A stretch of 64,000 nucleotides of DNA from the NCBI RefSeq assembly GCF_988242995.1, contig NZ_OZ547043.1; one strand, written 5' to 3'. Both the position numbers and the translations under genes were made by a program. This document shows positions 9,272 to 48,751 of the stretch, piece by piece. The notes beneath the pieces were generated by a model. That model was given only the letters and a program-made list of their open reading frames with translations, had not been told where the DNA came from and did no database searches. The first letter of the stretch is position 1, and every line of letters begins with the position of its first letter.

Positions 9272-9516
9272 GATCGTCTCTGGTTCAGGAAGTATTACAG
9301 GCAGTGTTGTGCAAATTTTGCGGATTATCAAATCCTTTTCTTCAACGCTATGTCATCGATCTTGTATCACCTTTTTGCCGGAAGTTGTTTGCATTTTCAT
9401 TGATGGTCAGATATTAGAATTGTCGTAATGTTATATACATGGCGTATTTTATTCTTACTGGTTCTACACATGTTAATCGCATCTGATTGATCAGTTCACC
9501 TTAATAAGTTTAATAA

Positions 9517-9543
9517 ATCGTACTGCACATAGTACAGTACGAT
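9517..9543 (-). terminator. Stem-loop just downstream of ymjC (possible intra-operon terminator or attenuator)
   Basis: ATCGTACTG-N9-CAGTACGAT, a 9-bp perfect stem 19 nt past the ymjC stop. AT-rich on the minus-strand 3' side. Confidence 0.35.
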
Positions 9544-9561
9544 GGTAGCTATATAATTGAT

Positions 9562-10200
9562 TTACATGAAGAATGGCTTGTCGCCATCAGTCCCGGGTTG
9601 ATTGATTCCTATATTCTCACCAATGTGTTTCTCAGGTTTATCGATGATATCTGTAATTAATGCTGCGACACTCTTACGTGATACGATCGTACCTTTGAAT
9701 GGTTCATTGCGTGAGGTAAGCTCATAATCAATAATATCTTCATCGGTCAGCCAGGCAGGGCGAAGAATTGTATATTCCAGTCCAGAAGCCTCAATTGCAT
9801 CCGCAGCCCTGCGGAATGGTTTTAGGGGTTCACCAATAACTGCATTATTCCATTCGCCAAATTTTCCTGGAACTTCATCATAAATACCGAGGGAAAGAAC
9901 AAAGATCAGACGTTTAACATCACAGGCTTTCATCGCAGCGATCACTGAATTTGCCTGAATATCTAAATCTTCCCCCGTAAGGTTGGCATACACAACATCC
10001 TGTCCCTGCATGGCCTGCTTCAGTGCTGCATGATTCAGTACATCCCCCATAATAATCTTGCTATTAGTGGGATAGGGTTTGTGGATTTTTGCTGGCTGAC
10101 GGGCAAATAAAGTTTGTTTAATGGTTTGTTTATCTGCCAGTTGATTAATCACATGGCGGGCTATCTGACCGCCAGCACCAAGAATCAGTACATTTTTCAT
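9562..10200 (-). CDS. ymjC: NAD(P)-binding Rossmann oxidoreductase (NmrA/SDR-like), intact frame
   Basis: 212 aa with N-terminal ILGAGGQIARH dinucleotide-binding motif. By position it corresponds to the ymjC/ymjD fragments I recall as pseudogenic in K-12. Confidence 0.8.
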   Translation of the reverse strand: MKNVLILGAGGQIARHVINQLADKQTIKQTLFARQPAKIHKPYPTNSKIIMGDVLNHAALKQAMQGQDVVYANLTGEDLDIQANSVIAAMKACDVKRLIFVLSLGIYDEVPGKFGEWNNAVIGEPLKPFRRAADAIEASGLEYTILRPAWLTDEDIIDYELTSRNEPFKGTIVSRKSVAALITDIIDKPEKHIGENIGINQPGTDGDKPFFM

Positions 10201-35525: not shown

Positions 35526-35624
35526 TGTTTTTTAACCTCAACTCAGATTAAAATTCGTTTTGTTCAGTGAATGATCTTGCCGGATACACACTGTTCATAG
35601 CCTGCGCCATACGCAGGCTATTTC

Positions 35625-36337
35625 TTGTGCACAGAAAACCCCCAGCTAGGCTGGGGGTTCCGGAAAGCTTTCAGCTTTGAGCCAGTTATTAAAACCCCTT
35701 TTGATTTGTTAAAACACTTTGCGGTCTGGCAACTGCAAGTGTCAAACAAGAAATCAAAAGGGGGTCCCAATGGGGAACGAAAAGAGCTTAGCGCACACCC
35801 GATGGAACTGTAAATATCACATAGTTTTTGCGCCAAAATACCGAAGACAGGTGTTCTACAGAGAGAAGCGTAGAGCAATAGGCAGTATTTTGAGAAAGCT
35901 GTGTGAGTGGAAAAGCGTACGGATTCTGGAAGCTGAATGCTGTGCAGATTATATCCATATGCTTGTGGAGATCCCGCCCAAAATGAGCGTATCCGGCTTT
36001 ATGGGATATCTGAAAGGGAAAAGCAGTCTGATGCTTTACGAGCAGTTTGGTGATTTGAAATTCAAATACAGGAACAGGGAGTTCTGGTGCAGAGGGTACT
36101 ACGTCGATACAGTGGGTAAGAACACGGCGAAGATACAGGATTACATAAAGCACCAGCTTGAAGAGGATAAAATGGGAGAGCAGTTATCGATTCCCTATCC
36201 GGGCAGCCCGTTTACGGGCCGTAAGTAACGAAGTTGGATGCAAATGTCAGATCGTGTGCGCCTGTTAGGGCGCGGCTGGTAAGAGAGCCTTATAGGCGCA
36301 TTTGAAAAACCTCCGGCTATGCCGGAGGATATTTATT
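35625..36337 (+). mobile_element. IS200-type insertion sequence (IS200/IS605 family), copy 1
   Basis: 713-bp block repeated at 48039-48751 (constant offset 12414; all overlapping ORF-track translations identical). Left-end hairpin AACCCCCAGC-TAG-GCTGGGGGTT (35637-35659), right-end hairpin CCTCCGGC-TAT-GCCGGAGG. No flanking target duplication. Confidence 0.93.
35770..36228 (+). CDS. tnpA: IS200 Y1 (HUH) transposase TnpA
   Basis: MGNEKSLAHTRWNCKYHIVFAPKYRRQVFY...ADYIHMLVEIPPK...YY (152 aa), with HUH-like HMLV and catalytic Tyr context. Confidence 0.93.
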   Translation: MGNEKSLAHTRWNCKYHIVFAPKYRRQVFYREKRRAIGSILRKLCEWKSVRILEAECCADYIHMLVEIPPKMSVSGFMGYLKGKSSLMLYEQFGDLKFKYRNREFWCRGYYVDTVGKNTAKIQDYIKHQLEEDKMGEQLSIPYPGSPFTGRK

Positions 36338-36613
36338 TCAGATTTCACCTTTTAATTTCATTGCAATTAGAGTTGCCAGAAATTCGGCTTTTTTTTCTGC
36401 GGGCAGATTCTTTCCGATATGCACCAGGCACATTTTTTTGACACCTTCATCAAGTGTTTTTACGTTGCCTGATGGACCATCGATATCAACCACAGTGAAT
36501 GGGGTTTCTTTATTTTCTGTTTTAATTACGTAGCCAATGCGCTTTCCTTCCAGATTCACCTCGTGAACAATGTCATCGGTAGTTACAACAGTGGCTTCAT
36601 AATTGGTAATCAT
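36338..36613 (-). CDS. racC: RacC
   Basis: MITNYEATVVTTDDIVHEVNLEGKRIGYVIKTENK... (91 aa). Its stop codon directly abuts the IS200 right end. Confidence 0.88.
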   Translation of the reverse strand: MITNYEATVVTTDDIVHEVNLEGKRIGYVIKTENKETPFTVVDIDGPSGNVKTLDEGVKKMCLVHIGKNLPAEKKAEFLATLIAMKLKGEI

Positions 36614-36687
36614 GTTTTTCTCCTTAATTAAGGTTGAGCGAATACCTGCCATTTCTGGCATAAATTTAGTTTCGAATAGTCAATTAA

Positions 36688-36858
36688 TTAAAGTTCATGT
36701 GCCATCTGGTCTTTTTCGGCACAAGCTTCACTGCAATATTTTCTCGGTTCGTCTTTTGATAAAATCCCGTGCATGAAGTGAAGCATTCTTTCAATAGCTT
36801 TGCTTTCTTCAACGTCTTTTTTGCAAAGGTGGTAAGCACATTTTATTTTCTTAGTCAT
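36688..36858 (-). CDS. ydaE: YdaE small Cys-rich (zinc-binding) protein
   Basis: Hand translation gives [56 protein letters not shown] (56 aa). ATGA overlap with the kilR stop. Below the ORF-track cut-off. Confidence 0.8.
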   Translation of the reverse strand: MTKKIKCAYHLCKKDVEESKAIERMLHFMHGILSKDEPRKYCSEACAEKDQMAHEL

Positions 36859-37079
36859 CACCATGACTCCGCCTTTACAGGTAAACCATCACGACCGAGG
36901 AAGACTTTAATCATGCGGTCAGTAATGCATGTTTTTGTGGTCAGGTTACGAATATATAGTTTTCGCTTTTTAATATTGTTTGCCGAGGCAATATATGTCC
37001 GGCCTTCATGAAGAACATAATCGCCAGGAGTCACACACTGACGTGGTATTTCATCAGTTCCGAAGTGATGTGCAATCAT
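36858..37079 (-). CDS. kilR: KilR cell-division (FtsZ) inhibitor
   Basis: [42 protein letters not shown]... (73 aa from the internal start). Confidence 0.9.
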
Positions 37080-37520
37080 AATTATCTCCATTTTTACAAA
37101 TGAACTTTGTTGATGCGGTGCCTGGTGCCTCCAGGTGACTGCAACCAGTTAACAATTACAGTCGGCTTTCCCACCCAAACCAATAAGGACTAACATGACT
37201 TTTAACTGTGCCACGTGCGCTTAGCCGCATTCACCGCATCACAAAATTCACTTTAAAAAGGGCGGACATCAGCCGAACTTCAAGAAAAAAACTGATGCCG
37301 CCAGGACTACACACAGCAATGTCGTTATTTACAACCGGAGGCGCACTCCCACCATTTAAATTTAACAGACAAGACCGACTCTTTATGGATATCGGAAATG
37401 CGCCTTCGTGTTGTGCCCGGTTTTATTTCACCACCTCCGGGCTTCGGTGGTCTCGGCTATACCCCTACAGCGAGAGCTTGTGTTAACATTTCAATACCCT
37501 TACAGTTGAGAGTTATTGAT

Positions 37521-38009
37521 ATGTTGGATGTATTTACTCCATTGTTGAAACTTTTTGCTAACGAGCCACTCGAAAGACTTATGTATACGATTATCATTTT
37601 TGGTCTCACTCTCTGGCTGATACCGAAAGAGTTTACTGCCGCATTCAATGCTTATACTGAAATACCTTGGCTCTTTCAGATTATCGTTTTTGCCTTTTCT
37701 TTCGTGGTCGCCATTTCCTTCTCAAGATTGCGAGCACATATTCAAAAGCATTATTCATTACTACCAGAGCAACGAGTATTGCTTCGTTTATCTGAGAAAG
37801 AAATCGCTGTATTTAAAGATTTCCTTAAAACAGGAAATCTTATTATCACTTCTCCTTGCCGTAACCCGGTTATGAAAAAATTAGAACGGAAGGGCATCAT
37901 TCAACATCAGAGTGATAGCGCAAACTGTTCTTATTATCTCGTCACCGAAAAATACTCCCATTTTATGAAGTTATTCTGGAACAGCAGGAGTAGACGTTTT
38001 AATCGTTAG
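37521..38009 (+). CDS. sieB: SieB superinfection exclusion protein
   Basis: ATG at 37521 gives MLDVFTPLLKLFANEPLERLMYTIIIFGLTLWLIPKEF... (162 aa, membrane). Confidence 0.9.
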   Translation: MLDVFTPLLKLFANEPLERLMYTIIIFGLTLWLIPKEFTAAFNAYTEIPWLFQIIVFAFSFVVAISFSRLRAHIQKHYSLLPEQRVLLRLSEKEIAVFKDFLKTGNLIITSPCRNPVMKKLERKGIIQHQSDSANCSYYLVTEKYSHFMKLFWNSRSRRFNR

Positions 38010-38161
38010 CTTACTGTGTGCTTCTCCAACCATCGGCGCGCACCAGTTTCGGTTTTAAATGTTTTGCTTTTGGTATACGTCATGGCAGTGAACGTTCCAT
38101 CCTGGTTGGGGAACACGCCGCACACCAGGGATTCGTTGTTGCCGAGGTCGATTTTTTGCAT
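38006..38161 (-). CDS. ydaF: YdaF small protein
   Basis: Hand translation gives MQKIDLGNNESLVCGVFPNQDGTFTAMTYTKSKTFKTETGARRWLEKHTVS (51 aa). Below the ORF-track cut-off. Confidence 0.75.
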   Translation of the reverse strand: MQKIDLGNNESLVCGVFPNQDGTFTAMTYTKSKTFKTETGARRWLEKHTVS

Positions 38162-38171
38162 TTTGCGAATC

Positions 38172-38306
38172 TCACATCTTGTTGCTACGTATAGCGACTT
38201 CTGCCTGCCAGAGATCCCAGTCGTTGCTGCGTAAAGCCTGCACAGCCTGGTTGTAAGTGATACCGCAACAATCCATCAAATACTGAACTACTTCGTAATG
38301 CACCAT
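38172..38306 (-). CDS. ydaG: YdaG small protein
   Basis: Hand translation gives MVHYEVVQYLMDCCGITYNQAVQALRSNDWDLWQAEVAIRSNKM (44 aa), preceded by GGGGAGAG. Confidence 0.75.
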   Translation of the reverse strand: MVHYEVVQYLMDCCGITYNQAVQALRSNDWDLWQAEVAIRSNKM

Positions 38307-38475
38307 CTTATCTCTCCCCTTAACGCCGGGTGGCGGAACTAACTGCTGCACTGCAAAATTTGAATCCCGCCGTCATGTTCATACGCCTCGGGCTGGCTAC
38401 TTAACCCCTTACCACTGCCTGGTAACTCGAAGTATTGCCCGGCGTTCTGTGGGGCGGGGTGGGTGGTATGCTGGA

Positions 38476-38504
38476 ACTATAGGTAATGCCTAATTGATTG
38501 TCAA
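38476..38504 (-). promoter_or_regulatory. Leftward early promoter (PL-like) with flanking GCCTAAT operator repeats
   Basis: The minus strand reads TTGACA-N17-TATAGT. It is embedded in ATTAGGC/GCCTAAT repeats and mirrors the element at 39145-39188. Confidence 0.65.
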
Positions 38505-38614
38505 TAGGCTATGCCTAATGTTTTGAGCGTAACCTAATAGGTGATGGCGACAGCAGAAAGTGATGGGGGGGTTAAATAACGGAATCCAGGAGTTTTCCGT
38601 CAGACCATATAAGT

Positions 38615-39091
38615 TTAAGTTCCAGTTTTTGTGATGTTCTGGCTTTTCCGTTCAGATTCTAGAGCTTTCAGATACTTACCCACTTTCATTTCCATCGCTG
38701 CTATATAGGCGCGAACATCGTGGTCAACCCAATCTGGTTCTGTAGCATTTCCAGATAACAGGAAAGCTACAATCGCTCTTATTTCATCAGAGGCTGCTTG
38801 ATAAAGGTTGTTTATATCTAAAAGTTCACTTTTTGTATCTGAATTGGTGGGGGTTGGTATGGGGTATTCGTTAAGCCCCCAATGCTCTGGACCAACAACA
38901 TCAGAAAAGAAACGCCATAATTCTGGAAGTTTATCTTTACTTATAGAGCCTTTCTTAATCCAGTCATAAATTGATGGTGGTTGGACTTTGAAGTGGCGTG
39001 CGACCTCCGCCTTTGATTTGACGGATCCCGATGCGATTTTTTTGTTAATGGCCTGCTCTATCGCTCGGCCTAAGTCTTTACCACTAAGCAT
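38615..39091 (-). CDS. racR: RacR prophage repressor
   Basis: 158 aa with N-terminal HTH (KSKAEVARHFKVQPPSIYDWIKKG). Divergent from ydaS. Confidence 0.93.
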   Translation of the reverse strand: MLSGKDLGRAIEQAINKKIASGSVKSKAEVARHFKVQPPSIYDWIKKGSISKDKLPELWRFFSDVVGPEHWGLNEYPIPTPTNSDTKSELLDINNLYQAASDEIRAIVAFLLSGNATEPDWVDHDVRAYIAAMEMKVGKYLKALESERKSQNITKTGT

Positions 39092-39158
39092 TGCTTAATA
39101 TTCTCCTATGCGCATTACATTAGGCAATCCCTACCCTTACCGCATTAGGCACAGCCTA

Positions 39159-39188
39159 TTGACAATTGCGTTAGGCGTCGCCTAATAT
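39159..39188 (+). promoter_or_regulatory. Rightward early promoter (PR-like) with GCCTAAT operator repeats
   Basis: TTGACA-N18-TAATAT lies 27 nt upstream of the ydaS ATG, flanked by CATTAGGC/GCCTAAT copies. Confidence 0.65.
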
Positions 39189-39214
39189 TTCTGTGTGTTT
39201 TTGGAGTTCATTCG

Positions 39215-39511
39215 ATGAAAAAAGAGAACTATTCATTCAAGCAAGCTTGTGCTGTTGTCGGTGGGCAATCAGCAATGGCTAGGCTTTTAGGTGTATCACC
39301 TCCAAGCGTAAATCAATGGATCAAAGGGGTACGTCAATTGCCTGCCGAGAGATGTCCAGCAATTGAACGTGCAACAAGAGGTGAGGTTCTGTGCGAAGAA
39401 CTTCGTCCTGATATTGACTGGTCATATTTACGACGTTCGGCATGTTGTTCGCAGAATATGTCAGTGAAGCAACTAAATGACAGTAACAAATCCTCATTTG
39501 ATCATACCTGA
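39215..39511 (+). CDS. ydaS: YdaS Cro-like HTH protein
   Basis: 98 aa with HTH ACAVVGGQSAMARLLGVSPPSVNQWIKG. First gene of the rightward operon. Confidence 0.9.
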   Translation: MKKENYSFKQACAVVGGQSAMARLLGVSPPSVNQWIKGVRQLPAERCPAIERATRGEVLCEELRPDIDWSYLRRSACCSQNMSVKQLNDSNKSSFDHT

Positions 39512-39533
39512 AACATCAAGAGGCAAATGATTC

Positions 39534-39956
39534 ATGAAAATCAAGCATGAGCACATCGAATCAGTGTTGTTTGCCCTAGCAGCCGAAAAAGGGCAGGCAT
39601 GGGTAGCCAATGCAATTACTGAAGAATATCTGCGCCAGGGGGGCGGCGAATTGCCCCTGGTTCCAGGCAAGGACTGGAACAATCAGCAGAATATCTATCA
39701 CCGTTGGTTGAAAGGTGAAACGAAAACGCAAAGAGAAAAAATTCAGAAGCTGATCCCAGCAATTCTGGCAATCCTTCCGCGCGAGCTGCGTCACCGACTC
39801 TGCATCTTCGATACCCTGGAACGCCGTGCATTACTGGCGGCGCAGGAAGCGTTAAGTACGGCAATTGATGCGCATGATGATGCAGTCCAAGCCGTTTACC
39901 GGAAAGCGCATTTCAGCGGCGGCGGTTCTTCCGACGATTCTGTCATTGTTCATTAA
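39534..39956 (+). CDS. ydaT: YdaT (CII-like position; reported toxic protein)
   Basis: 140 aa, MKIKHEHIESVLFALAAEKGQAWVANAITEEYLRQ.... Confidence 0.88.
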   Translation: MKIKHEHIESVLFALAAEKGQAWVANAITEEYLRQGGGELPLVPGKDWNNQQNIYHRWLKGETKTQREKIQKLIPAILAILPRELRHRLCIFDTLERRALLAAQEALSTAIDAHDDAVQAVYRKAHFSGGGSSDDSVIVH

Positions 39957-39968
39957 GCAAAAGTTTCC

Positions 39969-40826
39969 ATGCTGTTTGTGCTTATTCTAAGCCACCGGGC
40001 AGCATCATACGGGGCAATTATGGCCGCATTACCATACATGCAACTGTACATAGCTGATTACCTGGCTGACACCATGCATTTGTCAGCAGAGGAGCATGGT
40101 GCGTATTTGTTGCTGATGTTCAATTACTGGCAAACAGGAAAGCCAATACCTAAAAACAGGCTGGCAAAAATTGCCCGTCTGACTAACGAGCGATGGGCTG
40201 ATGTTGAACCATCCTTGCAGGAGTTTTTTTGCGATAACGGCGAGGAATGGGTGCATCTTCGGATTGAGGAAGATCTGGCATCAGTCAGGGAAAAATTAAC
40301 CAAAAAATCAGCCGCAGGAAAAGCATCTGTTCAGGCCAGAAGAAGCAGAAAGGAAGCAGATGTTCAAACAAAACAAGAGAGAAATTTAACAGGTGTTCAA
40401 ACAGATGTTGAAGTGGTGTTTGAACATGATGTCAACACAAAGGCAACTAATAAAGATACAGATAAAGATCTAAAAACAGATCCCCCCCTAAATCCCCCCC
40501 GGGGGAATCGAGGTGTCAAAAAGTTTGACCCTCTGGATATTGCTTTGCCGAACTGGATTTCTGTCTCGCTTTGGCGTGAGTGGGTTGAATTTCGCCAGGC
40601 ATTGCGAAAACCGATTCGAACGGAGCAGGGCGCTAACGGGGCGATACGGGAGCTGGAAAAATTCCGCCAGCAGGGTTTTTCACCTGAGCAGGTGATTCGA
40701 CACAGCATCGCCAATGAATACCAGGGCTTGTTCGCGCCGAAAGGTGTTCGACCTGAGACGTTACTCCGACAGGTTAACACCGTCTCGTTACCGGATAGTG
40801 CGATCCCGCCAGGCTTCAGGGGGTAA
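39969..40826 (+). CDS. ydaU: YdaU replication-initiation (O-like, DUF1376) protein
   Basis: 285 aa. Contains an internal iteron cluster, as lambda O does. Followed by a DnaC-like loader. Confidence 0.88.
   Translation: MLFVLILSHRAASYGAIMAALPYMQLYIADYLADTMHLSAEEHGAYLLLMFNYWQTGKPIPKNRLAKIARLTNERWADVEPSLQEFFCDNGEEWVHLRIEEDLASVREKLTKKSAAGKASVQARRSRKEADVQTKQERNLTGVQTDVEVVFEHDVNTKATNKDTDKDLKTDPPLNPPRGNRGVKKFDPLDIALPNWISVSLWREWVEFRQALRKPIRTEQGANGAIRELEKFRQQGFSPEQVIRHSIANEYQGLFAPKGVRPETLLRQVNTVSLPDSAIPPGFRG
40361..40437. repeat. Iteron cluster (candidate prophage origin, oriJ-like) inside ydaU
   Basis: TGTTCAAACA at 40361-40370 and 40394-40403, its inverse TGTTTGAACA at 40417-40426, and half-sites GATGTTGAAG and GATGTCAACA. 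Followed by an A/T-rich stretch and then C7-TAAAT-C7G5. Confidence 0.55.
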
Positions 40827-40832
40827 CTGACC

Positions 40833-41579
40833 ATGAAAAATATTGCGACAGGCGATGTTCTTGAACGTATCCGCAGACTGGCCCCGTCACATGTAACCGC
40901 GCCATTCAAGACGGTAGCGGAGTGGCGCGAGTGGCAACTTTCCGAAGGCCAGAAACGTTGTGAGGAGATCAACCGTCAGAATCGTCAGTTGCGGGTGGAA
41001 AAAATTCTTAATCGCTCTGGCATCCAGCCATTGCACCGCAAATGCTCGTTTTCGAATTACCAGGTGCAGAACGAAGGGCAGCGATACGCGTTGAGTCAGG
41101 CGAAATCCATCGCTGATGAACTGATGACCGGGTGTACAAATTTTGCGTTCAGCGGAAAACCTGGTACCGGAAAAAACCATCTGGCGGCGGCTATCGGGAA
41201 TCGCCTGCTGAAAGATGGCCAGACAGTGATTGTGGTTACCGTGGCTGATGTCATGAGTGCCCTACACGCCAGCTATGACGACGGGCAATCAGGCGAAAAA
41301 TTTTTGCGGGAACTGTGCCAAGTGGATCTGCTGGTTCTTGATGAAATTGGCATTCAGCGCGAGACAAAAAACGAGCAGGTGGTGCTGCACCAGATTGTTG
41401 ATCGCCGGACAGCGTCGATGCGCAGCGTGGGGATGCTGACAAACCTGAATTATGAGGCCATGAAAACATTGCTCGGCGAGAGGATTATGGATCGCATGAC
41501 CATGAACGGCGGGCGATGGGTGAATTTTAACTGGGAGAGCTGGCGTCCGAATGTCGTCCAGCCAGGAATTGCGAAGTAA
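40833..41579 (+). CDS. ydaV: YdaV DnaC-like helicase loader (AAA+)
   Basis: 248 aa with Walker [11 protein letters not shown] and Walker B LLVLDEIG. Confidence 0.92.
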
Positions 41580-41601
41580 TTTTTACCGGGAGAAAAATTT
41601 A

Positions 41602-42363
41602 ATGGAGACTGTTTTTGACGCACTGAAAGCAATGGGAAAAGCCACATCCATAGAACTTGCTGCGCGACTTGATATCAGCCGTGAAGAAGTGCTGAACGAA
41701 CTATGGGAACTGAAAAAGGCTGGTTTCGTTGATAAAAGCGCGTACACCTGGCGTGTGGCTGATAACAACGTTCAGCAGGAACAGCCAGCGCCGGCAGAAC
41801 TGCCGGAAGAAACTACCACGGCAACAGTCGCGAAAATTTCAGAGAGCGATTTAACTGCGACGATTGAACAACGTGGTCCACTAACTGCGGATGAACTGGC
41901 TACGTTGTTCGGTACCACATCCCGCAAAGTGGCTTCAACGCTGGCAATGGCAATCAGCAAAGCTCGTCTGATTCGCGTTAATCAGAACGGTAAATTTCGT
42001 TACTGCATGCCGGGCGGTAATTTACCAGCAGAGCCGAAAGCTGCATCGGTAGCGGAAACAGATGGTAAAGCCTTTCCTCAGCTAGCCGGTGTTGCGTTAC
42101 CAGTACAGGAAGCTGCAACACAGGAAGATATTAAAACAGAAACTGTGGCGGACATTGTGCAGTCGTTGCCATCGTTTACTGAAACGCAAGCGGATAACCT
42201 GATTTTACCATCGCTGCATATGGCAAACCGTGAACTGCGTCGGGCGAAAAATCATGTCCAGAAGTGGGAGCGAGTCTGCGCCGCGCTGCGGGAGCTGAAC
42301 AAGCACCGGGATATTGTTCGACAGATTTTCGATTCCTCCAGTCGTATTGTGTCGGAAAAGTGA
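41602..42363 (+). CDS. ydaW: YdaW-like protein, apparently full length (253 aa)
   Basis: ATG at 41602 gives [43 protein letters not shown]... (winged-helix N-terminus). I recall K-12 ydaW as a truncated pseudogene. Confidence 0.8.
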
Positions 42364-42378
42364 TTGCCGGAGGCACCT

Positions 42379-42810
42379 ATGGCAAAAGTATTTACACCAG
42401 AAGAGCGGGAAAAAATTAAAGGGCAGGTTGTTGAACTTGTACGTCTGAGCGGTCGCGAGACGTTACGGGCTCTGGAGGCTAAAACCGGTGCATCAAGGTA
42501 TTACATAAGCACTCTCGCCAGAGAACTGGTCGCCAGTGGTGATGTTTACAATTCAGGCTACGGATTATTCCCGTCTGAGCAGGCTCGTAAGGACTGGCAA
42601 AACGCCCGCAAAAAACTATCCAGGGCAAAGGTGAAAAAAACGGTTGTGGTTGATCCTGACCTTATCTGGTCATTACCAGACGGAGAAATACGCCGCTACG
42701 ACAGGCGCCTGAATATAATCTGTCGCGAGTGCCGGAAAAGCGAAGTTATGCAGCGTGTACTGGCATTTTACCAGAGTAATTTCAGGAGGTTGTCTGGTGA
42801 GCACGATTAA
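42379..42810 (+). CDS. Hypothetical phage protein (143 aa; HTH-like N-terminus, CRECRKS near C-terminus)
   Basis: GGAGGCACCT precedes the ATG at 42379. Translation MAKVFTPEEREKIKGQVVELVRLSGRETLRALEAKTGASRYYISTLAREL.... Last gene of the rightward block before the antisense cassette. Confidence 0.7.
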   Translation: MAKVFTPEEREKIKGQVVELVRLSGRETLRALEAKTGASRYYISTLARELVASGDVYNSGYGLFPSEQARKDWQNARKKLSRAKVKKTVVVDPDLIWSLPDGEIRRYDRRLNIICRECRKSEVMQRVLAFYQSNFRRLSGEHD

Positions 42811-42835
42811 CTACTAGGGGGGATAACAATAAAAT

Positions 42836-42855
42836 AAAGCCTCCTAGGAGGCTTT
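42836..42855. terminator. Perfect 20-nt palindrome; bidirectional terminator at the cassette boundary
   Basis: AAAGCCTCCTAGGAGGCTTT has an 8-bp stem and a CTAG loop. It overlaps the MTase stop codon (TAG). A T-rich tract follows on the minus strand. Confidence 0.7.
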
Positions 42856-43884
42856 GATTATATTAAGCAAATGTTTTCCAATCGTTTCAGACATCTTCGG
42901 AGGGACCGCATTTCCTATTTGACGAGCCCGAGATTGCAAAGAACCAATAAATTTATAATCCAAAGGAAATGTTTGTAGACACGCTGCTTCACGAACCGAT
43001 ATTGCTCGATTTTGTGTTGGATGTCCAAAACGTCCATTTGAATAGCTAATACAACGAGTTGTTAGTCCGCTGGCTGGTTTGTCCCAACTCAAACGTCCAT
43101 ATACGTCTGTATGCCCTTTATGGTTACGATGGCATTCTAAAATCAATTCATCTGGCCAAAATTCTCGACTTCCACCTTCAGGAGTGCATTTTATTCTACG
43201 TAAATTAAGCTCTGATAAGCGTGCAGCTTCATGATCAGGAATACTATTATGCTTTTCTCCTGCTTCTATCTTCGGTAAATTAGCGATCCAGTCCTTTACT
43301 GTTGAATAGGGAGTATTTCCAACCCCATGTGTAGGAGAAGGCAATGCGACATAAAAATCCTTGGATGCAATGAGCACTAATCTTTCTCGCGTCTGTGGTA
43401 CACCGTACCACGCAGCTGGCATTACTTTATAATCTACACTATATCCCTTTGATGAAAGCATTTCTAAAAACATCATGAATGTTCCTTCATTTTTGTTAAA
43501 CTTTTGCATTCCTGGCACGTTTTCAACAAAAATAAAATCAGGCATATAATGCTCTACAAAGCGACTGAATTCCTTTAATAGATCTAATCGTGGATCATCA
43601 TTTTTCTTATTTGAGTTTTGCTTAGAGTACGGTTGACAAGGCGCACATCCTGAAAAAAGAATGTAATCATTACGATGTTTTTTTACTAACTTGTTTATGG
43701 CATTGTTGTCGATTAACCTAATGTCCGAGTTAATAAAAGCAGCCTGCGGGAAATTTGCACGAAATGAACTGGCTGCATCAACGTCGAAATCGAGGCCAAA
43801 AACAATATCCATTCCAGCTTGATGGAAACCTTGGCTGGTTCCACCACAACCGGAAAAGAAGTCAAACACTTTGATTTTTTTCAT
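42844..43884 (-). CDS. DNA (cytosine-5) methyltransferase
   Basis: All canonical C5-MTase motifs occur in order: I FDFFSGCGG, IV GCAPCQPYS, VI FVENVPG, VIII QTRERLVLIA, IX REAACLQTFP, X GNAVPP. The best start is ATG 43884 with GAGGG upstream. The track ORF uses GTG 43908. Confidence 0.9.
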   Translation of the reverse strand: MKKIKVFDFFSGCGGTSQGFHQAGMDIVFGLDFDVDAASSFRANFPQAAFINSDIRLIDNNAINKLVKKHRNDYILFSGCAPCQPYSKQNSNKKNDDPRLDLLKEFSRFVEHYMPDFIFVENVPGMQKFNKNEGTFMMFLEMLSSKGYSVDYKVMPAAWYGVPQTRERLVLIASKDFYVALPSPTHGVGNTPYSTVKDWIANLPKIEAGEKHNSIPDHEAARLSELNLRRIKCTPEGGSREFWPDELILECHRNHKGHTDVYGRLSWDKPASGLTTRCISYSNGRFGHPTQNRAISVREAACLQTFPLDYKFIGSLQSRARQIGNAVPPKMSETIGKHLLNIIKAS

Positions 43885-43907
43885 TTTTCCCTCTGCATCC
43901 AGAATCA

Positions 43908-45737
43908 CTACCTAATGATACCACGGTCAAGAGCCTGAGTAATTATTTTTCTTATTTTTATAAATTCAGGCAATTCATTTTTAAGTCTTGCGGTCATCAT
44001 TTGTTGGAGGCAAAAAATTTCCTCTGCATTTACTTCTTCTTTATCATACAGGTGTTGCGCTAATAATCTTATTTGATTCTTATACAGTTCTGGATCATTA
44101 GAACTCCAGGTCTGTGAATCAATTATTTCTTTTTCACTTGGCGTAATTGCCTTTTCAATGAGTAATTGTTCGGGAGTATCAAATGGTAAATACTTCACTT
44201 TATTGAATGCATACTCAAGCACTTGCCTTTTGAGTCTATTAGATTCTTGTTCATTTTTTTTGCCATTACTACCACTGGCATTGATAATTAACTCGCAACC
44301 ATAATATTTGCACATTGTATTAACTAAATCAGCATCAGCAATTTCACTAATTCTTACTGGTTTTATTTTTTTGTTTTTATCACCATCAAGTAAAAACAAA
44401 ATATCATTGCGTTCTACCACAGCGTAACTGGGAAGATGCTTGCTTAAAATGGTCTCCGAACCACCTGGTATATAACTTACACTAAATGATAAGCTTAATC
44501 TTTCATCATTTTTAATCGCTTTATCTATAATTGCTTTAGCTAATTTATCTTCTACAATTATTGTTTTCTTGTTAATATCATGCCCTAGCTCTATAAAAGC
44601 TTCATCCGGTGCTATATTTTGAACTATTTTAGCTGTTTCACTCTCTTCATCAAAAACAAATAATTTAATGGCATCTTTGGGAAGAGTGTTCACAATAACA
44701 GGAGAATGGGTTGATATTACCACTTGATGTTTTTTCTGCTCAACAATAGAGTACAGAACATCCATCATCCTTTTTTGTGCACCAGGGTGAAGTGAAACTT
44801 CTGGTTCGTCAAGAAGAATTAATGAATTAGGTTTGGCCGAATAAATATTGAGTATTAGTGAAACTATTGCAAATTCACCACTTCCAGCAAACGCTTCTGT
44901 ATAGTTCAACTTATCAGTTGAAAGTAAAGCGGTTCCTCCTCTGGTTCCAAATAACCGATGCTCAAGAAATTTAATGACTTTATATTTTTTCCCTAATATA
45001 AATGAGACGTGCTCAACTAGTTCTGGCGCCAAGGTTATATTTTTAACAATGGTTTCCGCCCCCCAGAGTCTTAAATTACTTAGCTTTTCATCAAAAGCTT
45101 TCTTTATATATTTAGATTTGCTTCTGATATAGTCTTGCTTTGTAATTAATACACCACTCTTCTTCTTTCTTAATTTAAAATCAGAGTGATACATACATCT
45201 ATCAAATGCACTTATTTCCGATCTGAAATCTAGGAAAACCAATCCCTTCTTGATTTTTTTCCATCTGGTTGCATTACTATTAGCACCCAGATCATCCGAA
45301 ATACTCTCCATGTTATCACCAACAGATGGTCGACTTGTTTCCCAATAATCGATTGTTTTCTTGGTAGCATTGATACGTGCTTGGAGTATTTCAACTAAAC
45401 GGCCATCAGCATTTTTATATCCATATATATATCTAGGTTTAAGAGAACTGCCATCAGCAAGTTTTAGGTCAGGAAACTCATCTGTTTCAGTTGTGAACCA
45501 ATAACGAGTTATATTTTTACCATGTGGGCAACCAAATAGCGCTTTGATAACAGAACTTTTATTAGTTCCATTTTTTCCTACTAAAGCCGTTATAGGGAAC
45601 TGAAAATCGATCCTTGCATTCTGCTCTATATTTTTAAAGTATGGAAAACGGATATGTTGTATGAATGGTTCAAATTCACCGTTTTTTAACGCGCACTGGA
45701 GTGTTCGAATTTTGCTCTTGTATGCGGAAGTGCTCAT
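43908..45737 (-). CDS. OLD-like ABC-type ATPase with C-terminal Toprim/DUF4435-like region (609 aa)
   Basis: Walker A-like VGKNGTNKSS (aa 53-62), SGE signature (286-288), Walker B LILLDEPE then SLHP (306-318), H-loop STHSP (342-346), then IIVED (393-397) and LLDGD (449-453). Very AT-rich. Confidence 0.8.
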   Translation of the reverse strand: MSTSAYKSKIRTLQCALKNGEFEPFIQHIRFPYFKNIEQNARIDFQFPITALVGKNGTNKSSVIKALFGCPHGKNITRYWFTTETDEFPDLKLADGSSLKPRYIYGYKNADGRLVEILQARINATKKTIDYWETSRPSVGDNMESISDDLGANSNATRWKKIKKGLVFLDFRSEISAFDRCMYHSDFKLRKKKSGVLITKQDYIRSKSKYIKKAFDEKLSNLRLWGAETIVKNITLAPELVEHVSFILGKKYKVIKFLEHRLFGTRGGTALLSTDKLNYTEAFAGSGEFAIVSLILNIYSAKPNSLILLDEPEVSLHPGAQKRMMDVLYSIVEQKKHQVVISTHSPVIVNTLPKDAIKLFVFDEESETAKIVQNIAPDEAFIELGHDINKKTIIVEDKLAKAIIDKAIKNDERLSLSFSVSYIPGGSETILSKHLPSYAVVERNDILFLLDGDKNKKIKPVRISEIADADLVNTMCKYYGCELIINASGSNGKKNEQESNRLKRQVLEYAFNKVKYLPFDTPEQLLIEKAITPSEKEIIDSQTWSSNDPELYKNQIRLLAQHLYDKEEVNAEEIFCLQQMMTARLKNELPEFIKIRKIITQALDRGIIR

Positions 45738-45885
45738 TGTTTACTAAAGTCCATAATAGGCTATTAACAGGTTGAGGATGACATGATAACGATTTTTAAT
45801 GCAGATAAAAGAGGTTTGTTGGTTAGCACACAACAGAAAAAGTGACCTTACCGCTTGAACGAAAGGTAAGGGTAAGTAGGCTGTG

Positions 45886-46038
45886 ATGCAGCAAAAGACG
45901 ATGTTAATCGCCCTGATTGTCATCTGTATTACCGTCGTTGTGATGGCACTGGTAACAAGGAAAGACTTCTGCGAGGTACAAATCCGAACCGGTCAGACGG
46001 AGGTCGCTGTCTTCACAGCTTACGAACCTGAGGAGTGA
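45886..46038 (+). CDS. hok: Hok/Gef-family type I toxin (50 aa)
   Basis: Hand translation gives MQQKTMLIALIVICITVVVMALVTRKDFCEVQIRTGQTEVAVFTAYEPEE, closely resembling my recollection of HokD/RelF. A downstream fbi-type hairpin GGCGAGGGA-GAAA-TCCCTCGCC lies at 46046-46067. Below the ORF-track cut-off. Confidence 0.88.
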   Translation: MQQKTMLIALIVICITVVVMALVTRKDFCEVQIRTGQTEVAVFTAYEPEE

Positions 46039-46144
46039 GAGACCAGGCGAGGGAGAAATCCCTCGCCACCTCTGATGAGTCAGGCATCCTCAACGCACCC
46101 GCACTTAACCAACTTTGGCGGGTATATTTTATCTGTGAATATTT

Positions 46145-46231
46145 TTATAAAAATAATGCCCACGCACAGCATAAAACAAAAAGTATTACAGATAAAAAAG
46201 GAACGTAATGTGCAGATTTGTTGTTTTCCAT
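46145..46231 (-). CDS. Possible 28-aa hydrophobic peptide
   Basis: AAGGTGAG lies 6 nt before the ATG (46231). Translation MENNKSAHYVPFLSVILFVLCCAWALFL has a polar head and one TM-length hydrophobic tail. No recognised homology. Confidence 0.3.
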   Translation of the reverse strand: MENNKSAHYVPFLSVILFVLCCAWALFL

Positions 46232-46503
46232 ATTTACTCACCTTAATATGATTAACCCTAATAGGGTTGTTATTTCAGCGGTTTTCAAATGAGATATTAT
46301 GGTGATCTGGCAGATTTGCATAACATTAAAATTTAATTTGTTTAACCGCTTTTAATAATAAGCGTTGTTTGTATCCCAGCAATCTGTTGTTTGGTTTTTA
46401 TTCCATTAAGGTGGGGCTTTACACTGGAGCCAGTTTATTTATACTTCATACGTCAGCCTGAACAACTGGCATCTGCTGCGCTGCGCCATCGAGAGATTAA
46501 GAA

Positions 46504-47103
46504 ATGGCGCATATACAACTGGTCAAACAAACCTCTTCCGGATTACTTCTCCCGGCGACGCCGGAGAGTTGTGATTTTCTGCATCAAATCAAAATAGGCG
46601 AGTGGATACACGCAGACTTTAAGCGTGTGCGTAACTACGCATTCCACAAGCGTTTTTTCAAACTCCTGCAACTGGGATTCGATTACTGGACTCCGGTCGG
46701 TGGGGCGATCACGCCTCGCGAACGAGAACAGCTGTCTGGTTTCGTTGATTACCTGTGCGAATCAGTTGGTCGGGAACACACGCCAGCCCTGAGTGATGCC
46801 GCAGAGCAATATCTGAATACAGTTGCGACACGCAGAACCCGGGATACGGCATTGCTAAAGTCGTTTGAGGCTTTTCGCGAGTGGGTAACCATTCAGGCTG
46901 GATTTTACACCGAACATTTTTATCCGGACGGTAGCCGCGGGCGTCGGGCAAAATCTATCGCTTTTGCGAATATGGACGAAACCGAGTTTCAGCAGGTTTA
47001 TAAATCTGTTCTGAATGTGCTGTGGAACTGGATTCTGTTCCGTAAATTTTCCTCTCCGGAACAAGTCGAAAATGTGGCCGCGCAGCTGCTGGAGTTTGCG
47101 TAA
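46504..47103 (+). CDS. nin-region phage protein (DUF1367-like, YbcN-position)
   Basis: 199 aa, MAHIQLVKQTSSGLLLPATPESCDFLHQIKIGEWIHADFKRVRNYAFHKRFF.... ATGG overlap with the next gene. Assigned by resemblance to lambdoid nin-region proteins. Confidence 0.7.
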   Translation: MAHIQLVKQTSSGLLLPATPESCDFLHQIKIGEWIHADFKRVRNYAFHKRFFKLLQLGFDYWTPVGGAITPREREQLSGFVDYLCESVGREHTPALSDAAEQYLNTVATRRTRDTALLKSFEAFREWVTIQAGFYTEHFYPDGSRGRRAKSIAFANMDETEFQQVYKSVLNVLWNWILFRKFSSPEQVENVAAQLLEFA

Positions 47104-47393
47104 TGGTGGATTTACGTAAAGCGGCGCGGGGGCAGATGTGCACCGTCAGAATTCCTGGCTACTGCAATCACAATCCCGAAACATCTGTGCTGGCGCATTA
47201 CAGGCTGGCGGGGACGTGCGGAACAGCGACAAAACCACACGATATGCAGGCAGCGATTGCCTGTAGCTCATGCCACGATTTAATCGACGGGCGGGTAAAA
47301 ACCAGCGATTACACCAAAGAAGAATTACGCCTGATGCATGCAGAAGGTGTTTTTCGCACACAAGAAATCTGGAGAAAGGAAGGTTATTTATGA
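47103..47393 (+). CDS. YbcO-like (DUF1364) putative nuclease
   Basis: 96 aa, MVDLRKAARGQMCTVRIPGYCNHNPETSVLAHYRLAG...ACSSCHDLIDGR. Resembles DLP12 YbcO as I recall it (Cys/His metal site). Confidence 0.8.
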   Translation: MVDLRKAARGQMCTVRIPGYCNHNPETSVLAHYRLAGTCGTATKPHDMQAAIACSSCHDLIDGRVKTSDYTKEELRLMHAEGVFRTQEIWRKEGYL

Positions 47394-47932
47394 TTTACCC
47401 AACAAATACAGGCAAAAGCGGGGAACACCTTCGTCTCACCACGCTGGAAAGTGTCTGGATTCAGGGAAAACTGCGCATGTGGGGGCGCTGGTCGTATATT
47501 GGCGGCGGTAAGACGGGAAATATGTTTAACCAGTTGCTGGCATCCAAAAAATTGACGAAAACAGCCGTCAATGAAGCCCTGCGCAGGATGAAAAAAGCGG
47601 GAATAGAGAAACCTGAGCTGGAAGCGTTTTTGCGAGAGATGATCAATGGCAAGCAAAAGACCTGGCTGGCGCATTGTACTGATGCAGAGGCGTTATGTAT
47701 TGATAGAGTCATAAGTGAGGTGCTGGCAGAGCATCCTGGATTGATTAGTGTCCTCCGGCAACGGTATGAAGGACGGGGGATGACTAAGCGCAAAATGGCT
47801 GAATTGCTAAATGATGCACATCCTGAGTGGTGTTTTAGCACATGCGAAAAGCGAATTGCTAATTGGTTGGCTGTTGCTGAGTATGCCCTATATATTCCCA
47901 TGCGAGAATTATTTGCTCAAAAAATAGCTTGA
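47390..47932 (+). CDS. Late-gene antiterminator Q
   Basis: ATGA overlap with the previous stop. 180 aa, MIYPTNTGKSGEHLRLTTLESVWIQGKLRMWGRWSYIGGGKTGNMFNQLL.... Positioned before a tR'-like terminator and the lysis genes. The track ORF has a spurious 40-codon extension. Confidence 0.8.
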   Translation: MIYPTNTGKSGEHLRLTTLESVWIQGKLRMWGRWSYIGGGKTGNMFNQLLASKKLTKTAVNEALRRMKKAGIEKPELEAFLREMINGKQKTWLAHCTDAEALCIDRVISEVLAEHPGLISVLRQRYEGRGMTKRKMAELLNDAHPEWCFSTCEKRIANWLAVAEYALYIPMRELFAQKIA

Positions 47933-48015
47933 TTTTTTACGCATAAACTGCTTCAATTCCGGTATGCTTCGCAAAGCTGTATCGCGAGGCGAACCAAGCG
48001 CATGAACTTTACCAG

Positions 48016-48040
48016 AACCCGCCATTGAGCGGGTTTTGTT
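48016..48040 (+). terminator. tR'-like intrinsic terminator downstream of Q
   Basis: AACCCGC-CATTGA-GCGGGTT followed by TTGTT. The IS200 copy-2 left end starts at or within its T-tract. Confidence 0.65.
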
Positions 48041-48751
48041 GTGCACAGAAAACCCCCAGCTAGGCTGGGGGTTCCGGAAAGCTTTCAGCTTTGAGCCAGT
48101 TATTAAAACCCCTTTTGATTTGTTAAAACACTTTGCGGTCTGGCAACTGCAAGTGTCAAACAAGAAATCAAAAGGGGGTCCCAATGGGGAACGAAAAGAG
48201 CTTAGCGCACACCCGATGGAACTGTAAATATCACATAGTTTTTGCGCCAAAATACCGAAGACAGGTGTTCTACAGAGAGAAGCGTAGAGCAATAGGCAGT
48301 ATTTTGAGAAAGCTGTGTGAGTGGAAAAGCGTACGGATTCTGGAAGCTGAATGCTGTGCAGATTATATCCATATGCTTGTGGAGATCCCGCCCAAAATGA
48401 GCGTATCCGGCTTTATGGGATATCTGAAAGGGAAAAGCAGTCTGATGCTTTACGAGCAGTTTGGTGATTTGAAATTCAAATACAGGAACAGGGAGTTCTG
48501 GTGCAGAGGGTACTACGTCGATACAGTGGGTAAGAACACGGCGAAGATACAGGATTACATAAAGCACCAGCTTGAAGAGGATAAAATGGGAGAGCAGTTA
48601 TCGATTCCCTATCCGGGCAGCCCGTTTACGGGCCGTAAGTAACGAAGTTGGATGCAAATGTCAGATCGTGTGCGCCTGTTAGGGCGCGGCTGGTAAGAGA
48701 GCCTTATAGGCGCATTTGAAAAACCTCCGGCTATGCCGGAGGATATTTATT
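48039..48751 (+). mobile_element. IS200-type insertion sequence, copy 2
   Basis: Identical block to 35625-36337, in the same orientation. Inserted between the Q/tR' region and the lysis region. Confidence 0.93.
48184..48642 (+). CDS. tnpA: IS200 Y1 transposase TnpA (copy 2)
   Basis: Same 152-aa product as copy 1. Confidence 0.93.
   Translation: MGNEKSLAHTRWNCKYHIVFAPKYRRQVFYREKRRAIGSILRKLCEWKSVRILEAECCADYIHMLVEIPPKMSVSGFMGYLKGKSSLMLYEQFGDLKFKYRNREFWCRGYYVDTVGKNTAKIQDYIKHQLEEDKMGEQLSIPYPGSPFTGRK

Follow-up and report, generated by a model that had tools for sequence, protein, structure and literature searches.

Two identical IS200C copies flank the early region of a full-length Rac-type prophage, each next to a terminator-like hairpin

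IS200C belongs to the IS200 group of the IS200/IS605 family, together with Salmonella IS200 and Yersinia IS1541. Elements of this family insert in the lagging-strand template (PMC5371812, PMC5027513). In the window analysed here (the whole 64,000-nt stretch of contig NZ_OZ547043.1, RefSeq assembly GCF_988242995.1), we found two copies of IS200C within a Rac-type prophage. As is usual for the group, these copies are 711 nt long, carry a single gene for a 152-aa Y1 transposase and the art200/STnc490 RNA, have subterminal hairpins at both ends, and are without terminal inverted repeats or a classical target duplication. They differ from the commonest E. coli copies by two private substitutions, one of which leads to the change H61Y in TnpA. 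The host prophage is placed among the Rac type by its gene order and identity. Like K-12 Rac and the inducible Rac-type phages Rac-SA53 and vB_EcoS-683R6, it is attached at ttcA and follows the order intR-xisR-recET-racC-kilR-sieB-racR-ydaSTUV, and its early region is 90-96% identical to that of the Rac-type phages. In contrast to K-12 Rac, which is a remnant, it has its full length, and downstream of trkG lie the terminase, capsid and tail genes. It differs from both K-12 Rac and the phages in carrying an OLD-type nuclease and C5-MTase cassette and the two IS200C copies. The arrangement also resembles composite transposons and other IS-mediated rearrangements (Tn10/IS10; the IS200 duplications of Salmonella) in that two identical direct IS copies surround a block of genes and provide a substrate for homologous recombination. 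Unlike in those systems, the block here is DNA native to the prophage and in its original location, and it shows no sign of past movement or deletion.

An exact offset scan found 713 of 713 bases identical on the same strand between 35625-36337 and 48039-48751, at an offset of 12,414 nt, bearing out a first-pass annotation that had described two identical IS200 blocks in the same orientation. Identity drops to 24-30% outside the blocks (100 nt on each side), and the 35-mer at the left end occurs exactly twice in the window and not at all in shuffled sequences. The blocks had been given as 713 bp; the identity does extend over 713 nt, but comparison with the empty sites of E. coli LST200A indicates that the inserted DNA is 711 nt (GTGCAC...TTTATT), at 35627-36337 and 48041-48751. 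Each empty site already has one copy of the residual two nucleotides of the block (TT), and the identity over 713 nt thus comprises the 711-nt IS and a common target dinucleotide. The empty sites also agree with the earlier statement that no target duplication had been made, in that no classical duplication is seen. A 2-nt duplication of TT at insertion is formally possible, since the IS ends in TT too.

The element is IS200C, with 99.7% identity (711 of 713 positions) to RefSeq-annotated copies. It encodes a Y1 (HUH) transposase (Pfam Y1_Tnp, E = 7e-37) whose PDB homologues include IS608 TnpA (2a6m, E = 3e-18), and both copies match Rfam STnc490. Copy 1 (35627-36337, + strand; GTGCAC...ATATTTATT) adjoins with its right end the stop codon of racC (36338-36340, - strand). 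On the + strand it holds the left-end subterminal hairpin CCCCCAGC-TAG-GCTGGGGG (35639-35657), the tnpA 5'UTR with the art200 (STnc490) region (35637-35760; RF01405, 144.6 bits, E = 4e-30), tnpA (35770-36228; 152 aa, with codon 61 at 35950-35952) and the right-end subterminal hairpin CCTCCGGC-TAT-GCCGGAGG (36310-36328), which is followed by ATATTTATT. Copy 2 (48041-48751, + strand) is identical, with the left-end hairpin at 48053-48071, STnc490 at 48051-48174, tnpA (again H61Y) at 48184-48642 and the right-end hairpin at 48724-48742, all on the + strand. In IS200, the left-end hairpin is a bidirectional terminator at nt 12-34 (PMC4513863).

The DNA between the copies (36338-48015) is a native Rac-type early region and contains racC, ydaE, kilR, sieB, ydaF, racR, ydaS, ydaT, ydaU and ydaV, followed by genes for DUF1627 and DUF977 proteins, a C5-MTase, an OLD-type ATPase-nuclease, hok, a NinB-like protein, an HNH/DUF1364 protein and a Q-like protein. 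Every ORF in this interval is intact, as are 25 of 25 ORFs from recE to trkG. Gene identities were taken from the PGAP names at the 99.9%-identical LST200A locus and from Pfam and PHROG matches, and by these the gene list of the first-pass annotation is correct. The iteron cluster that it had assigned to ydaU was likewise recovered: iteron-like AxCAGATGTTCAAACA units with a spacing of 33 nt, plus one inverted copy, lie inside ydaU at 40321-40427 (+ strand) and form a putative origin.

IS-free, colinear versions of this region, 99.9% identical, were found in at least 17 complete E. coli genomes. The region spans 13,779 nt in the 17 IS-free genomes versus 15,201 nt in the window, and the empty sites are contiguous apart from the 711-nt inserts. 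Identity to LST200A is 99.93% between the IS copies, compared with 99.88% and 99.80% outside them. The description of the bracketed DNA as a plasmid-like module is thus not upheld, since it is native early DNA that matches an IS-free prophage in the same way as its flanks. We also considered whether the segment had been imported between the IS copies and rejected this on account of its colinearity and uniform identity to LST200A. The block occurs neither in several contexts nor as DNA foreign to its surroundings, as would be expected of a composite transposon. In all 22 complete genomes with at least 80% of the region, neither Rac site is occupied, which supports the earlier view that the copies are recent. 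The left junction of either IS was present in none of the 5,426 complete E. coli genomes and had no match in IMG/VR or the JGI metagenomes. The IS-free colinearity, the intact ORFs and the absence of the junctions elsewhere argue for two new simple insertions in native DNA rather than an imported or mobilised module. We therefore consider it highly probable that one IS200C variant has, on an evolutionary scale, only recently made two separate simple insertions in an otherwise intact full-length Rac-type prophage.

Comparison with the empty sites places both insertions 3' of TTTNTT, with the TT single in the empty site. Target site 1 (35597-35626, + strand) lies between recE and racC and consists of the hairpin ATAGCCTGCG-CCATA-CGCAGGCTAT and the sequence TTCTT, with the IS 3' of the final TT; the empty site in L001 reads ...caggctatttcTT|tcagattt. 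It has an MFE of -18.1 kcal/mol and is flagged by the scanner as terminator-like on the + strand. Target site 2 (48016-48040, + strand) consists of the hairpin AACCCGC-CATTGA-GCGGGTT and the sequence TTGTT, ends 108 nt past the stop codon of the Q-like gene and has an RNAfold MFE of -16.1 kcal/mol; its empty site reads ...gagcgggttttgTT|gtttctgg. The hairpin at the copy-2 target went unflagged by the consensus terminator scanner, and we classed the site as terminator-like from its RNAfold energy and from comparison with 49 other flanks. This hairpin may be a tR'-like terminator of a late leader, and a promoter-like site is found nearby at 47867-47896.

The same pattern is found where this IS is inserted elsewhere. 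Among 49 distinct left flanks from Kluyvera, Citrobacter, Phytobacter, Brenneria, Entomohabitans, Yersinia and other Enterobacterales, 47 consist of a GC-rich hairpin and a T-run ending in TT according to a home-made terminator criterion, compared with 2 of 190 control windows. T occupies positions -1 and -2 in all 49 flanks (the two in the window bring the total to 51, all ending in TT), and the E. coli IS200C copies that we inspected also follow a hairpin and T-run. Within the window, only five + strand sites have a hairpin and T-run at an MFE of -15 or below, and two of these are the occupied sites. The possibility that the target hairpin is part of the IS was rejected, as the hairpin is present in empty sites and is different at every locus. 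An enrichment of terminator-like sequences immediately upstream of ISs has been reported, with the strongest signal in IS200/IS605 (PMC13548323), and an anecdotal case has IS1541 between pheL and pheA (PMC3082878). These two, the former statistical, are the literature matches to our observation, and we found no paper that states outright that IS200 or IS1541 targets terminators. The evidence for a role of the target hairpin is a correlation. The near-total association of IS200C with intrinsic-terminator-like hairpins (47/49) offers a target rule that is concrete and open to testing, for an IS notorious for its inactivity, and predicts landing places in prophages, such as a tR'-like site behind Q.

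These data suggest how the two insertions may have come about. Each copy lies exactly 3' of a GC-rich hairpin and T-run ending in TT, on what would be the lagging-strand template. The positive GC skew of the + strand and a gene order that is that of K-12 from ycjX to trkG fit the top strand as the lagging-strand template. The right end of the IS is likewise a hairpin followed by ATATTTATT. Situated 5' of each IS hairpin is a GAAAA(A) stretch that would, with the T-rich cleavage site, fit guide pairing of the IS608 type. The positions of the copies, and hence the extent of the apparent module, would be set by strong terminator-like hairpins on the + strand, one after racC and one after the Q-like gene, and the shared orientation would follow from strand-specific integration of ssDNA. 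The intervening 11.7 kb is the early region of the prophage and nothing else.

In both copies, codon 61 of tnpA is TAT (Tyr) rather than CAT (His), so that Y61-I-H63 replaces the H-I-H of the HUH motif (for the role of this motif, see PMC3597680). Y125 and Q129 are present in both copies and align with Y127 and Q131 of IS608, and the catalytic residue set (H-u-H, Tyr, Gln) lacks the first HUH His. The H61Y protein is found on 25 contigs versus at least 1000 for the wild-type protein, and a look-up of the exact H61Y protein returned other loci, none of them in Rac. Judging by the residues, TnpA activity would be lost through H61Y, and the window copies are IS200C members by descent but probably non-autonomous. 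A further, very improbable reading is that the H61Y form is still mobile, in trans or by residual activity, and is spreading among copies via gene conversion. That a natural HUH-motif variant of TnpA nevertheless sits at new sites is a modestly useful side result.

Gene conversion among the IS200C copies of this lineage, rather than very recent transposition, could also account for the identity of the pair, in which case the insertions could be somewhat older. We regard this as a tentative and on balance unlikely explanation, although the identity could in part reflect conversion instead of the recency of insertion. In its favour, the exact window variant is also present at rplT|pheM and ymgK|ymgL, two old IS200C sites that are occupied in 16 and 160 complete genomes, respectively; the complete genomes examined there carry C324/G371. 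Further IS backgrounds, with 5 to about 11 differences elsewhere, have T324 and C371 linked as well. At these two sites, CFSAN061763 encodes the common TnpA protein and PK8275 has a frameshifted tnpA. However, with the Rac sites empty in 22/22 genomes and the junctions found in 0/5,426, the insertions are lineage-specific whatever homogenised the copies, and gene conversion would alter only the dating of the feature and not its nature.

The first-pass annotation had further proposed that RecA-mediated recombination between the copies would loop out a circle. Here the IS pair would render immunity, replication, hok and defence excisable, with the 12.4-kb circle replicating from the ydaU origin and a crippled prophage left behind. 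Such a loop-out is generically possible between 711-nt perfect direct repeats, and the interval does hold the iteron-like cluster, the O-like/primosomal ydaU, the DnaC-like ydaV, racR and hok. It also counts for the circle that K-12 Rac has a functional origin (oriJ) and that, as Haack and Roth reportedly found in 1995, IS200 copies support RecA-dependent duplications in Salmonella. We nevertheless consider the circle quite improbable. The junctions expected of the deletion and of the circle are both absent from IMG/VR, the JGI metagenomes and the 5,426 complete genomes, plasmids included. The best PLSDB record for the racR-ydaV-DUF1627 module had 34% coverage at 78% identity and none reached 80%; the matches in PLSDB were fragments only, and thus no plasmid or phage-plasmid replicon with this module is among its records. 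The circle would carry racR, the silencer of ydaS/T and adjacent operons, so its replication genes would be expected to stay off, and SOS cleavage of RacR is not to be assumed because its C-terminal domain is unlike that of CI (PMC11014345). In addition, the boundaries of the segment are accounted for by target choice, and its loss would be counter-selected if hok is active. The predicted circle junction is the Q-side flank ...GAGCGGGTTTTGTT / IS200C / TCAGATTTCACC... on the racC side, and the predicted deletion junction is the recE-side flank ...CAGGCTATTTCTT / IS200C / GTTTCTGGTACTGG.... It is very improbable that recombination frees a one-IS circle of 12.4 kb on which RacR is titrated or lost, giving replication from the ydaU origin, hok-based persistence and a 'mini-Rac' plasmid with immunity and OLD-nuclease/MTase defence. 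If the circle model were true, IS insertions could carve a replicon from a prophage; nothing that we found points there.

It had also been suggested that TnpA could act on copy 1 at its left end and on copy 2 at its right end, so that all 13.1 kb would move as one composite single-strand transposon. Both of these outer ends are indeed intact and share a strand, and a suitable T-rich site is present 5' of the left end of copy 1. However, the cognate inner ends, each at a distance of just 711 nt, would be preferred, both copies encode TnpA with H61Y in the HUH catalytic motif, and the segment occurs in no other context among the 5,426 complete E. coli genomes, PLSDB, IMG/VR and the JGI metagenomes. 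To our knowledge, no long composites of Y1 single-strand transposases have been described, and Ton-Hoang is said to have reported in 2010 that IS608 excision depends on length. [quoted passage not shown] Transposase action on the two outer ends is thus unlikely, and movement of the segment as a whole is barely credible. Equally far-fetched is that the assembler put in a repeated IS twice: many short-read assemblies do collapse IS200C to a contig of roughly 713 nt (L013, L022, L032), but both copies have clean, precise junctions at canonical targets, the flanks are contiguous in empty-site genomes, and misplacement would not yield the target rule twice.

As two simple insertions, the copies are routine for a prophage, and their value is mainly for annotation. 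They provide strain-specific markers and a potential place of prophage decay via deletion; the pair is a passive 711-nt direct repeat at which, as with any two IS copies, RecA could delete or duplicate the DNA between them. For an IS found at a median of one place per genome having any, two copies within 12.4 kb is a high density, and a local hop between the copies, or selection for the arrangement, is therefore possible. On the - strand, the right end of copy 1 forms a hairpin followed by TTTTTC, a terminator-like arrangement for transcription running leftwards to recE, and the IS copies may exert polarity effects on recET and the late genes.

A Rac-type prophage in this window has recently received two target-directed IS200C insertions. 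As the first-pass annotation had claimed, the copies are identical and direct: 35625-36337 and 48039-48751 share 713 of 713 consecutive bases on the same strand (exact scan, offset 12,414), with 24-30% identity over the 100 nt on each side. Exactly two matches to the 35-nt IS left-end sequence are present across the 64-kb window, and shuffles gave none. Each block contains one 152-aa tnpA ORF on the + strand (35770-36228 in copy 1, 48184-48642 in copy 2), and both ORFs match Pfam Y1_Tnp (E = 7e-37) as well as solved IS200/IS605 transposases, including IS608 TnpA. The assignment to the IS200 family is further supported by 99.7% DNA identity (711/713) to RefSeq-annotated IS200C copies, which are present in 3,097 of 5,426 complete E. 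coli genomes, and by matches of both copies to Rfam STnc490 (art200, the 5'UTR region of IS200). Subterminal hairpins lie at 35639-35657 and 36310-36328 in copy 1 and at equivalent positions in copy 2. An IS pair in a Rac-type prophage is a feature of a kind already known, and we regard the terminator-targeting rule and the HUH-variant transposase described below as minor leads.

To define the insertions we used empty sites. The 15.2-kb region is found in 17 complete genomes at 99.9% identity and 91% coverage, where it spans 13,779 nt as opposed to 15,201 nt in the window, indicating that neither IS is present at the two sites in these relatives. In LST200A, an E. coli genome with an IS-free Rac prophage, the sites read ...CGCAGGCTATTTCTT/TCAGATTT... 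and ...GAGCGGGTTTTGTT/GTTTCTGG..., and the inserted DNA is 711 nt (GTGCAC...ATATTTATT); the identity extends over 713 nt owing to the TT with which each target ends. The IS608 model would assign the left TT to the target and the right-end TT to the IS, so that the proposed lack of a target duplication holds for a 711-nt insert, although a 2-nt TT duplication is also formally possible. None of the 5,426 complete E. coli genomes covers at least 80% of either 300-nt left-junction probe, and junction 29- and 30-mers have no match in IMG/VR or in JGI metagenome contigs. Complete genomes hold 10,731 IS200C places; their identity to the window copies reaches at most 99.7%, and none of them combines the two substitutions that the window copies share. 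Both insertions are lineage-specific, and their recency, previously read from the identity of the copies, is borne out by the empty sites and the junction searches.

Both targets are terminator-like, each a GC-rich hairpin with a short T-rich tail (35597-35626, -18.1 kcal/mol, and 48016-48040, -16.1 kcal/mol, both + strand), and the IS lies directly 3' of it. Scanning one genome per species with the exact left-end 35-mer gave 54 loci across many Enterobacterales, among them Kluyvera, Citrobacter, Phytobacter, Brenneria, Entomohabitans and Yersinia. A hairpin plus T-run was present in 47 of the 49 distinct left flanks (mean MFE -17.6 kcal/mol), compared with 2 of 190 control windows located 150-450 nt further upstream (mean MFE -9.1 kcal/mol). 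T occupies positions -1 and -2 in all 49 flanks and positions -4 to -6 in 44-48 of them. The same pattern is seen at E. coli copies between sgrT and leuD, rplT and pheM, ymgK and ymgL, tynA and feaB, fadR and ycgB, and kdsA and ldr, and at one in a prophage. Once both IS copies are removed from the window in silico, TTTNTT together with a hairpin at MFE <= -15 kcal/mol occurs at only five + strand sites, and the occupied sites are two of these five. Consistent with this preference, a 2026 survey found terminator-like sequences over-represented directly upstream of ISs, with IS200/IS605 showing the strongest excess (PMC13548323). The IS right end is itself shaped like the target, a hairpin followed by ATATTTATT, so that each insertion creates a target-like site anew. 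On the 5' side of each IS hairpin lies GAAAA or GAAAAA, which, by analogy with IS608, could act as a guide pairing with the T-rich cleavage site. Positive GC skew on the window + strand, together with a gene order matching K-12 from ycjX to trkG, makes it most likely that the IS top strand serves as lagging-strand template, in line with the bias known for this family (PMC5371812, PMC5027513); given this bias, direct orientation of two neighbouring copies is expected.

The observation behind the first-pass annotation is thus confirmed, while its interpretation is supported only in part. Its gene list for the DNA between the copies proved correct when the PGAP annotation of LST200A was mapped onto the window, and agrees with Pfam, PHROG and PADLOC results: racC, ydaE, kilR, sieB, ydaF, a small phage gene, racR, ydaS, ydaT, ydaU, ydaV, DUF1627, DUF977, a C5 cytosine methyltransferase, an ATP-dependent (OLD/AAA_15-type) nuclease, hok, NinB-like DUF1367, HNH/DUF1364 and a Q-like DUF1133 protein, with all ORFs intact. 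An iteron-like cluster within ydaU (40321-40427; three AxCAGATGTTCAAACA units at 33-nt spacing, plus a further overlapping unit and an inverted copy) resembles the lambda ori within the O gene. The description of this interval as a plasmid-like module was not supported. A full-length Rac-type prophage is integrated at ttcA, with its terminase, capsid and tail genes further right, and the interval is simply its early region, which is also common to Rac-type phages. Nothing marks the interval off as a separate entity, identity to the IS-free prophage being 99.93% inside it and 99.88% and 99.80% directly outside, and no plasmid in PLSDB covers more than 34% of racR-ydaV-DUF1627.

These results argue against the proposal that recombination between the copies loops out a functional, excisable plasmid-like replicon. 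Recombination between 711-nt direct repeats is generic, and IS200 copies reportedly support duplications in Salmonella, but the product junction was found nowhere in the 5,426 complete E. coli genomes, IMG/VR or JGI metagenome contigs, and PLSDB holds no plasmid counterpart. The circle would moreover carry racR, so its replication genes would stay off. RacR is a CI-like repressor silencing ydaS/T and neighbouring operons, with a C-terminal domain unlike that of CI (PMC11014345), and SOS induction therefore cannot be assumed. Selection would also act against segregants that lose the segment, provided that hok is active. In the long term the prophage would more likely undergo ordinary decay through deletion. 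Mobilisation of the whole segment by TnpA acting on the outer ends is very unlikely, since the family excises one DNA strand only and both ends, 13.1 kb apart, would need to be single-stranded at once when ssDNA between Okazaki fragments is ~1.5-2 kb (PMC5027513), IS608 excision is length-dependent (noted in PMC5371416), and a cognate partner lies only 711 nt from each outer end.

The copies may have local effects. Copy 1 abuts the racC stop codon and presents leftward transcription with its right-end hairpin and then TTTTTC, which could make it polar on recET. Copy 2 is inserted 108 nt past the Q-like gene, with a promoter-like site at 47867-47896, and the hairpin on its 5' side could be a tR'-like leader terminator. 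The IS200 left end contains a bidirectional terminator (PMC4513863), and copy 2 would put both this terminator and its right-end hairpin between Q and the lysis genes; polymerase modified by Q is expected to transcribe through them.

Both copies differ from common IS200C by C>T at IS position 324 (CAT>TAT, H61Y; codon 61 at 35950-35952 and 48364-48366, + strand) and a synonymous G>C at 371. In alignments H61 falls on the first His of HUH ('DHIHIL' in IS608 TnpA, 'DHIHLF' in Sulfolobus homologues), a motif that together with the tyrosine forms the catalytic site (PMC3597680); Y125 and Q129 are retained in both copies. The change at 324 also abolishes a GATC site (GCAGATCATATCC to GCAGATTATATCC). 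The exact H61Y protein is rare (25 public contigs versus at least 1000 for wild type) and occurs at several chromosomal sites, including rplT/pheM and ymgK/ymgL, which are old IS200C sites (occupied in 16 and 160 complete genomes, respectively). Both complete genomes examined at these sites have the common C324/G371, with a frameshifted tnpA in PK8275, whereas some draft assemblies have the exact window variant there. H61Y was always linked to C371 in the copies inspected, and the linked pair is also found on IS backgrounds differing at 5 to ~11 other positions. This pattern suggests gene conversion among copies and/or mobilisation in trans; any movement of H61Y elements might rely on residual activity or on a helper acting in trans.

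Several further observations were made. A 35-nt inverted repeat (83% complementary; 38497-38531 and 39132-39166) flanks racR on both sides and, by analogy, may mark operator-bearing regions like OL and OR. The OLD/AAA_15-type nuclease, for which PADLOC ranks HEC-04 best, followed by ATPase-Toprim_I-B and AriA, is paired with the methyltransferase at 42844-45737 (- strand). Other Rac variants carry a replacement of part of the query region, where the listed features include SIR2 and adenosine deaminase, DUF262 and AAA ATPase, or KilA-N genes, and there may be a putative defence-cassette hotspot between DUF977 and hok. The Rac prophage (31600-52800) is 99.8-99.9% identical to LST200A, far above its chromosomal background (only 97.4-98.7% from ycjX to ttcA, 2777-34213), a contrast suggesting that Rac has recently spread horizontally or recombined. 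About 660 nt at 9401-10062, near ycjY and a dehydratase pseudogene, have no counterpart in LST200A, and the first 2.8 kb (1-2776) do not match its corresponding stretch. In several draft assemblies of other genera IS200C is collapsed into a stand-alone contig of ~713 nt (713-716 nt at loci L013, L022 and L032), and many draft contigs stop at its left end, so that copy numbers are underestimated in short-read assemblies.
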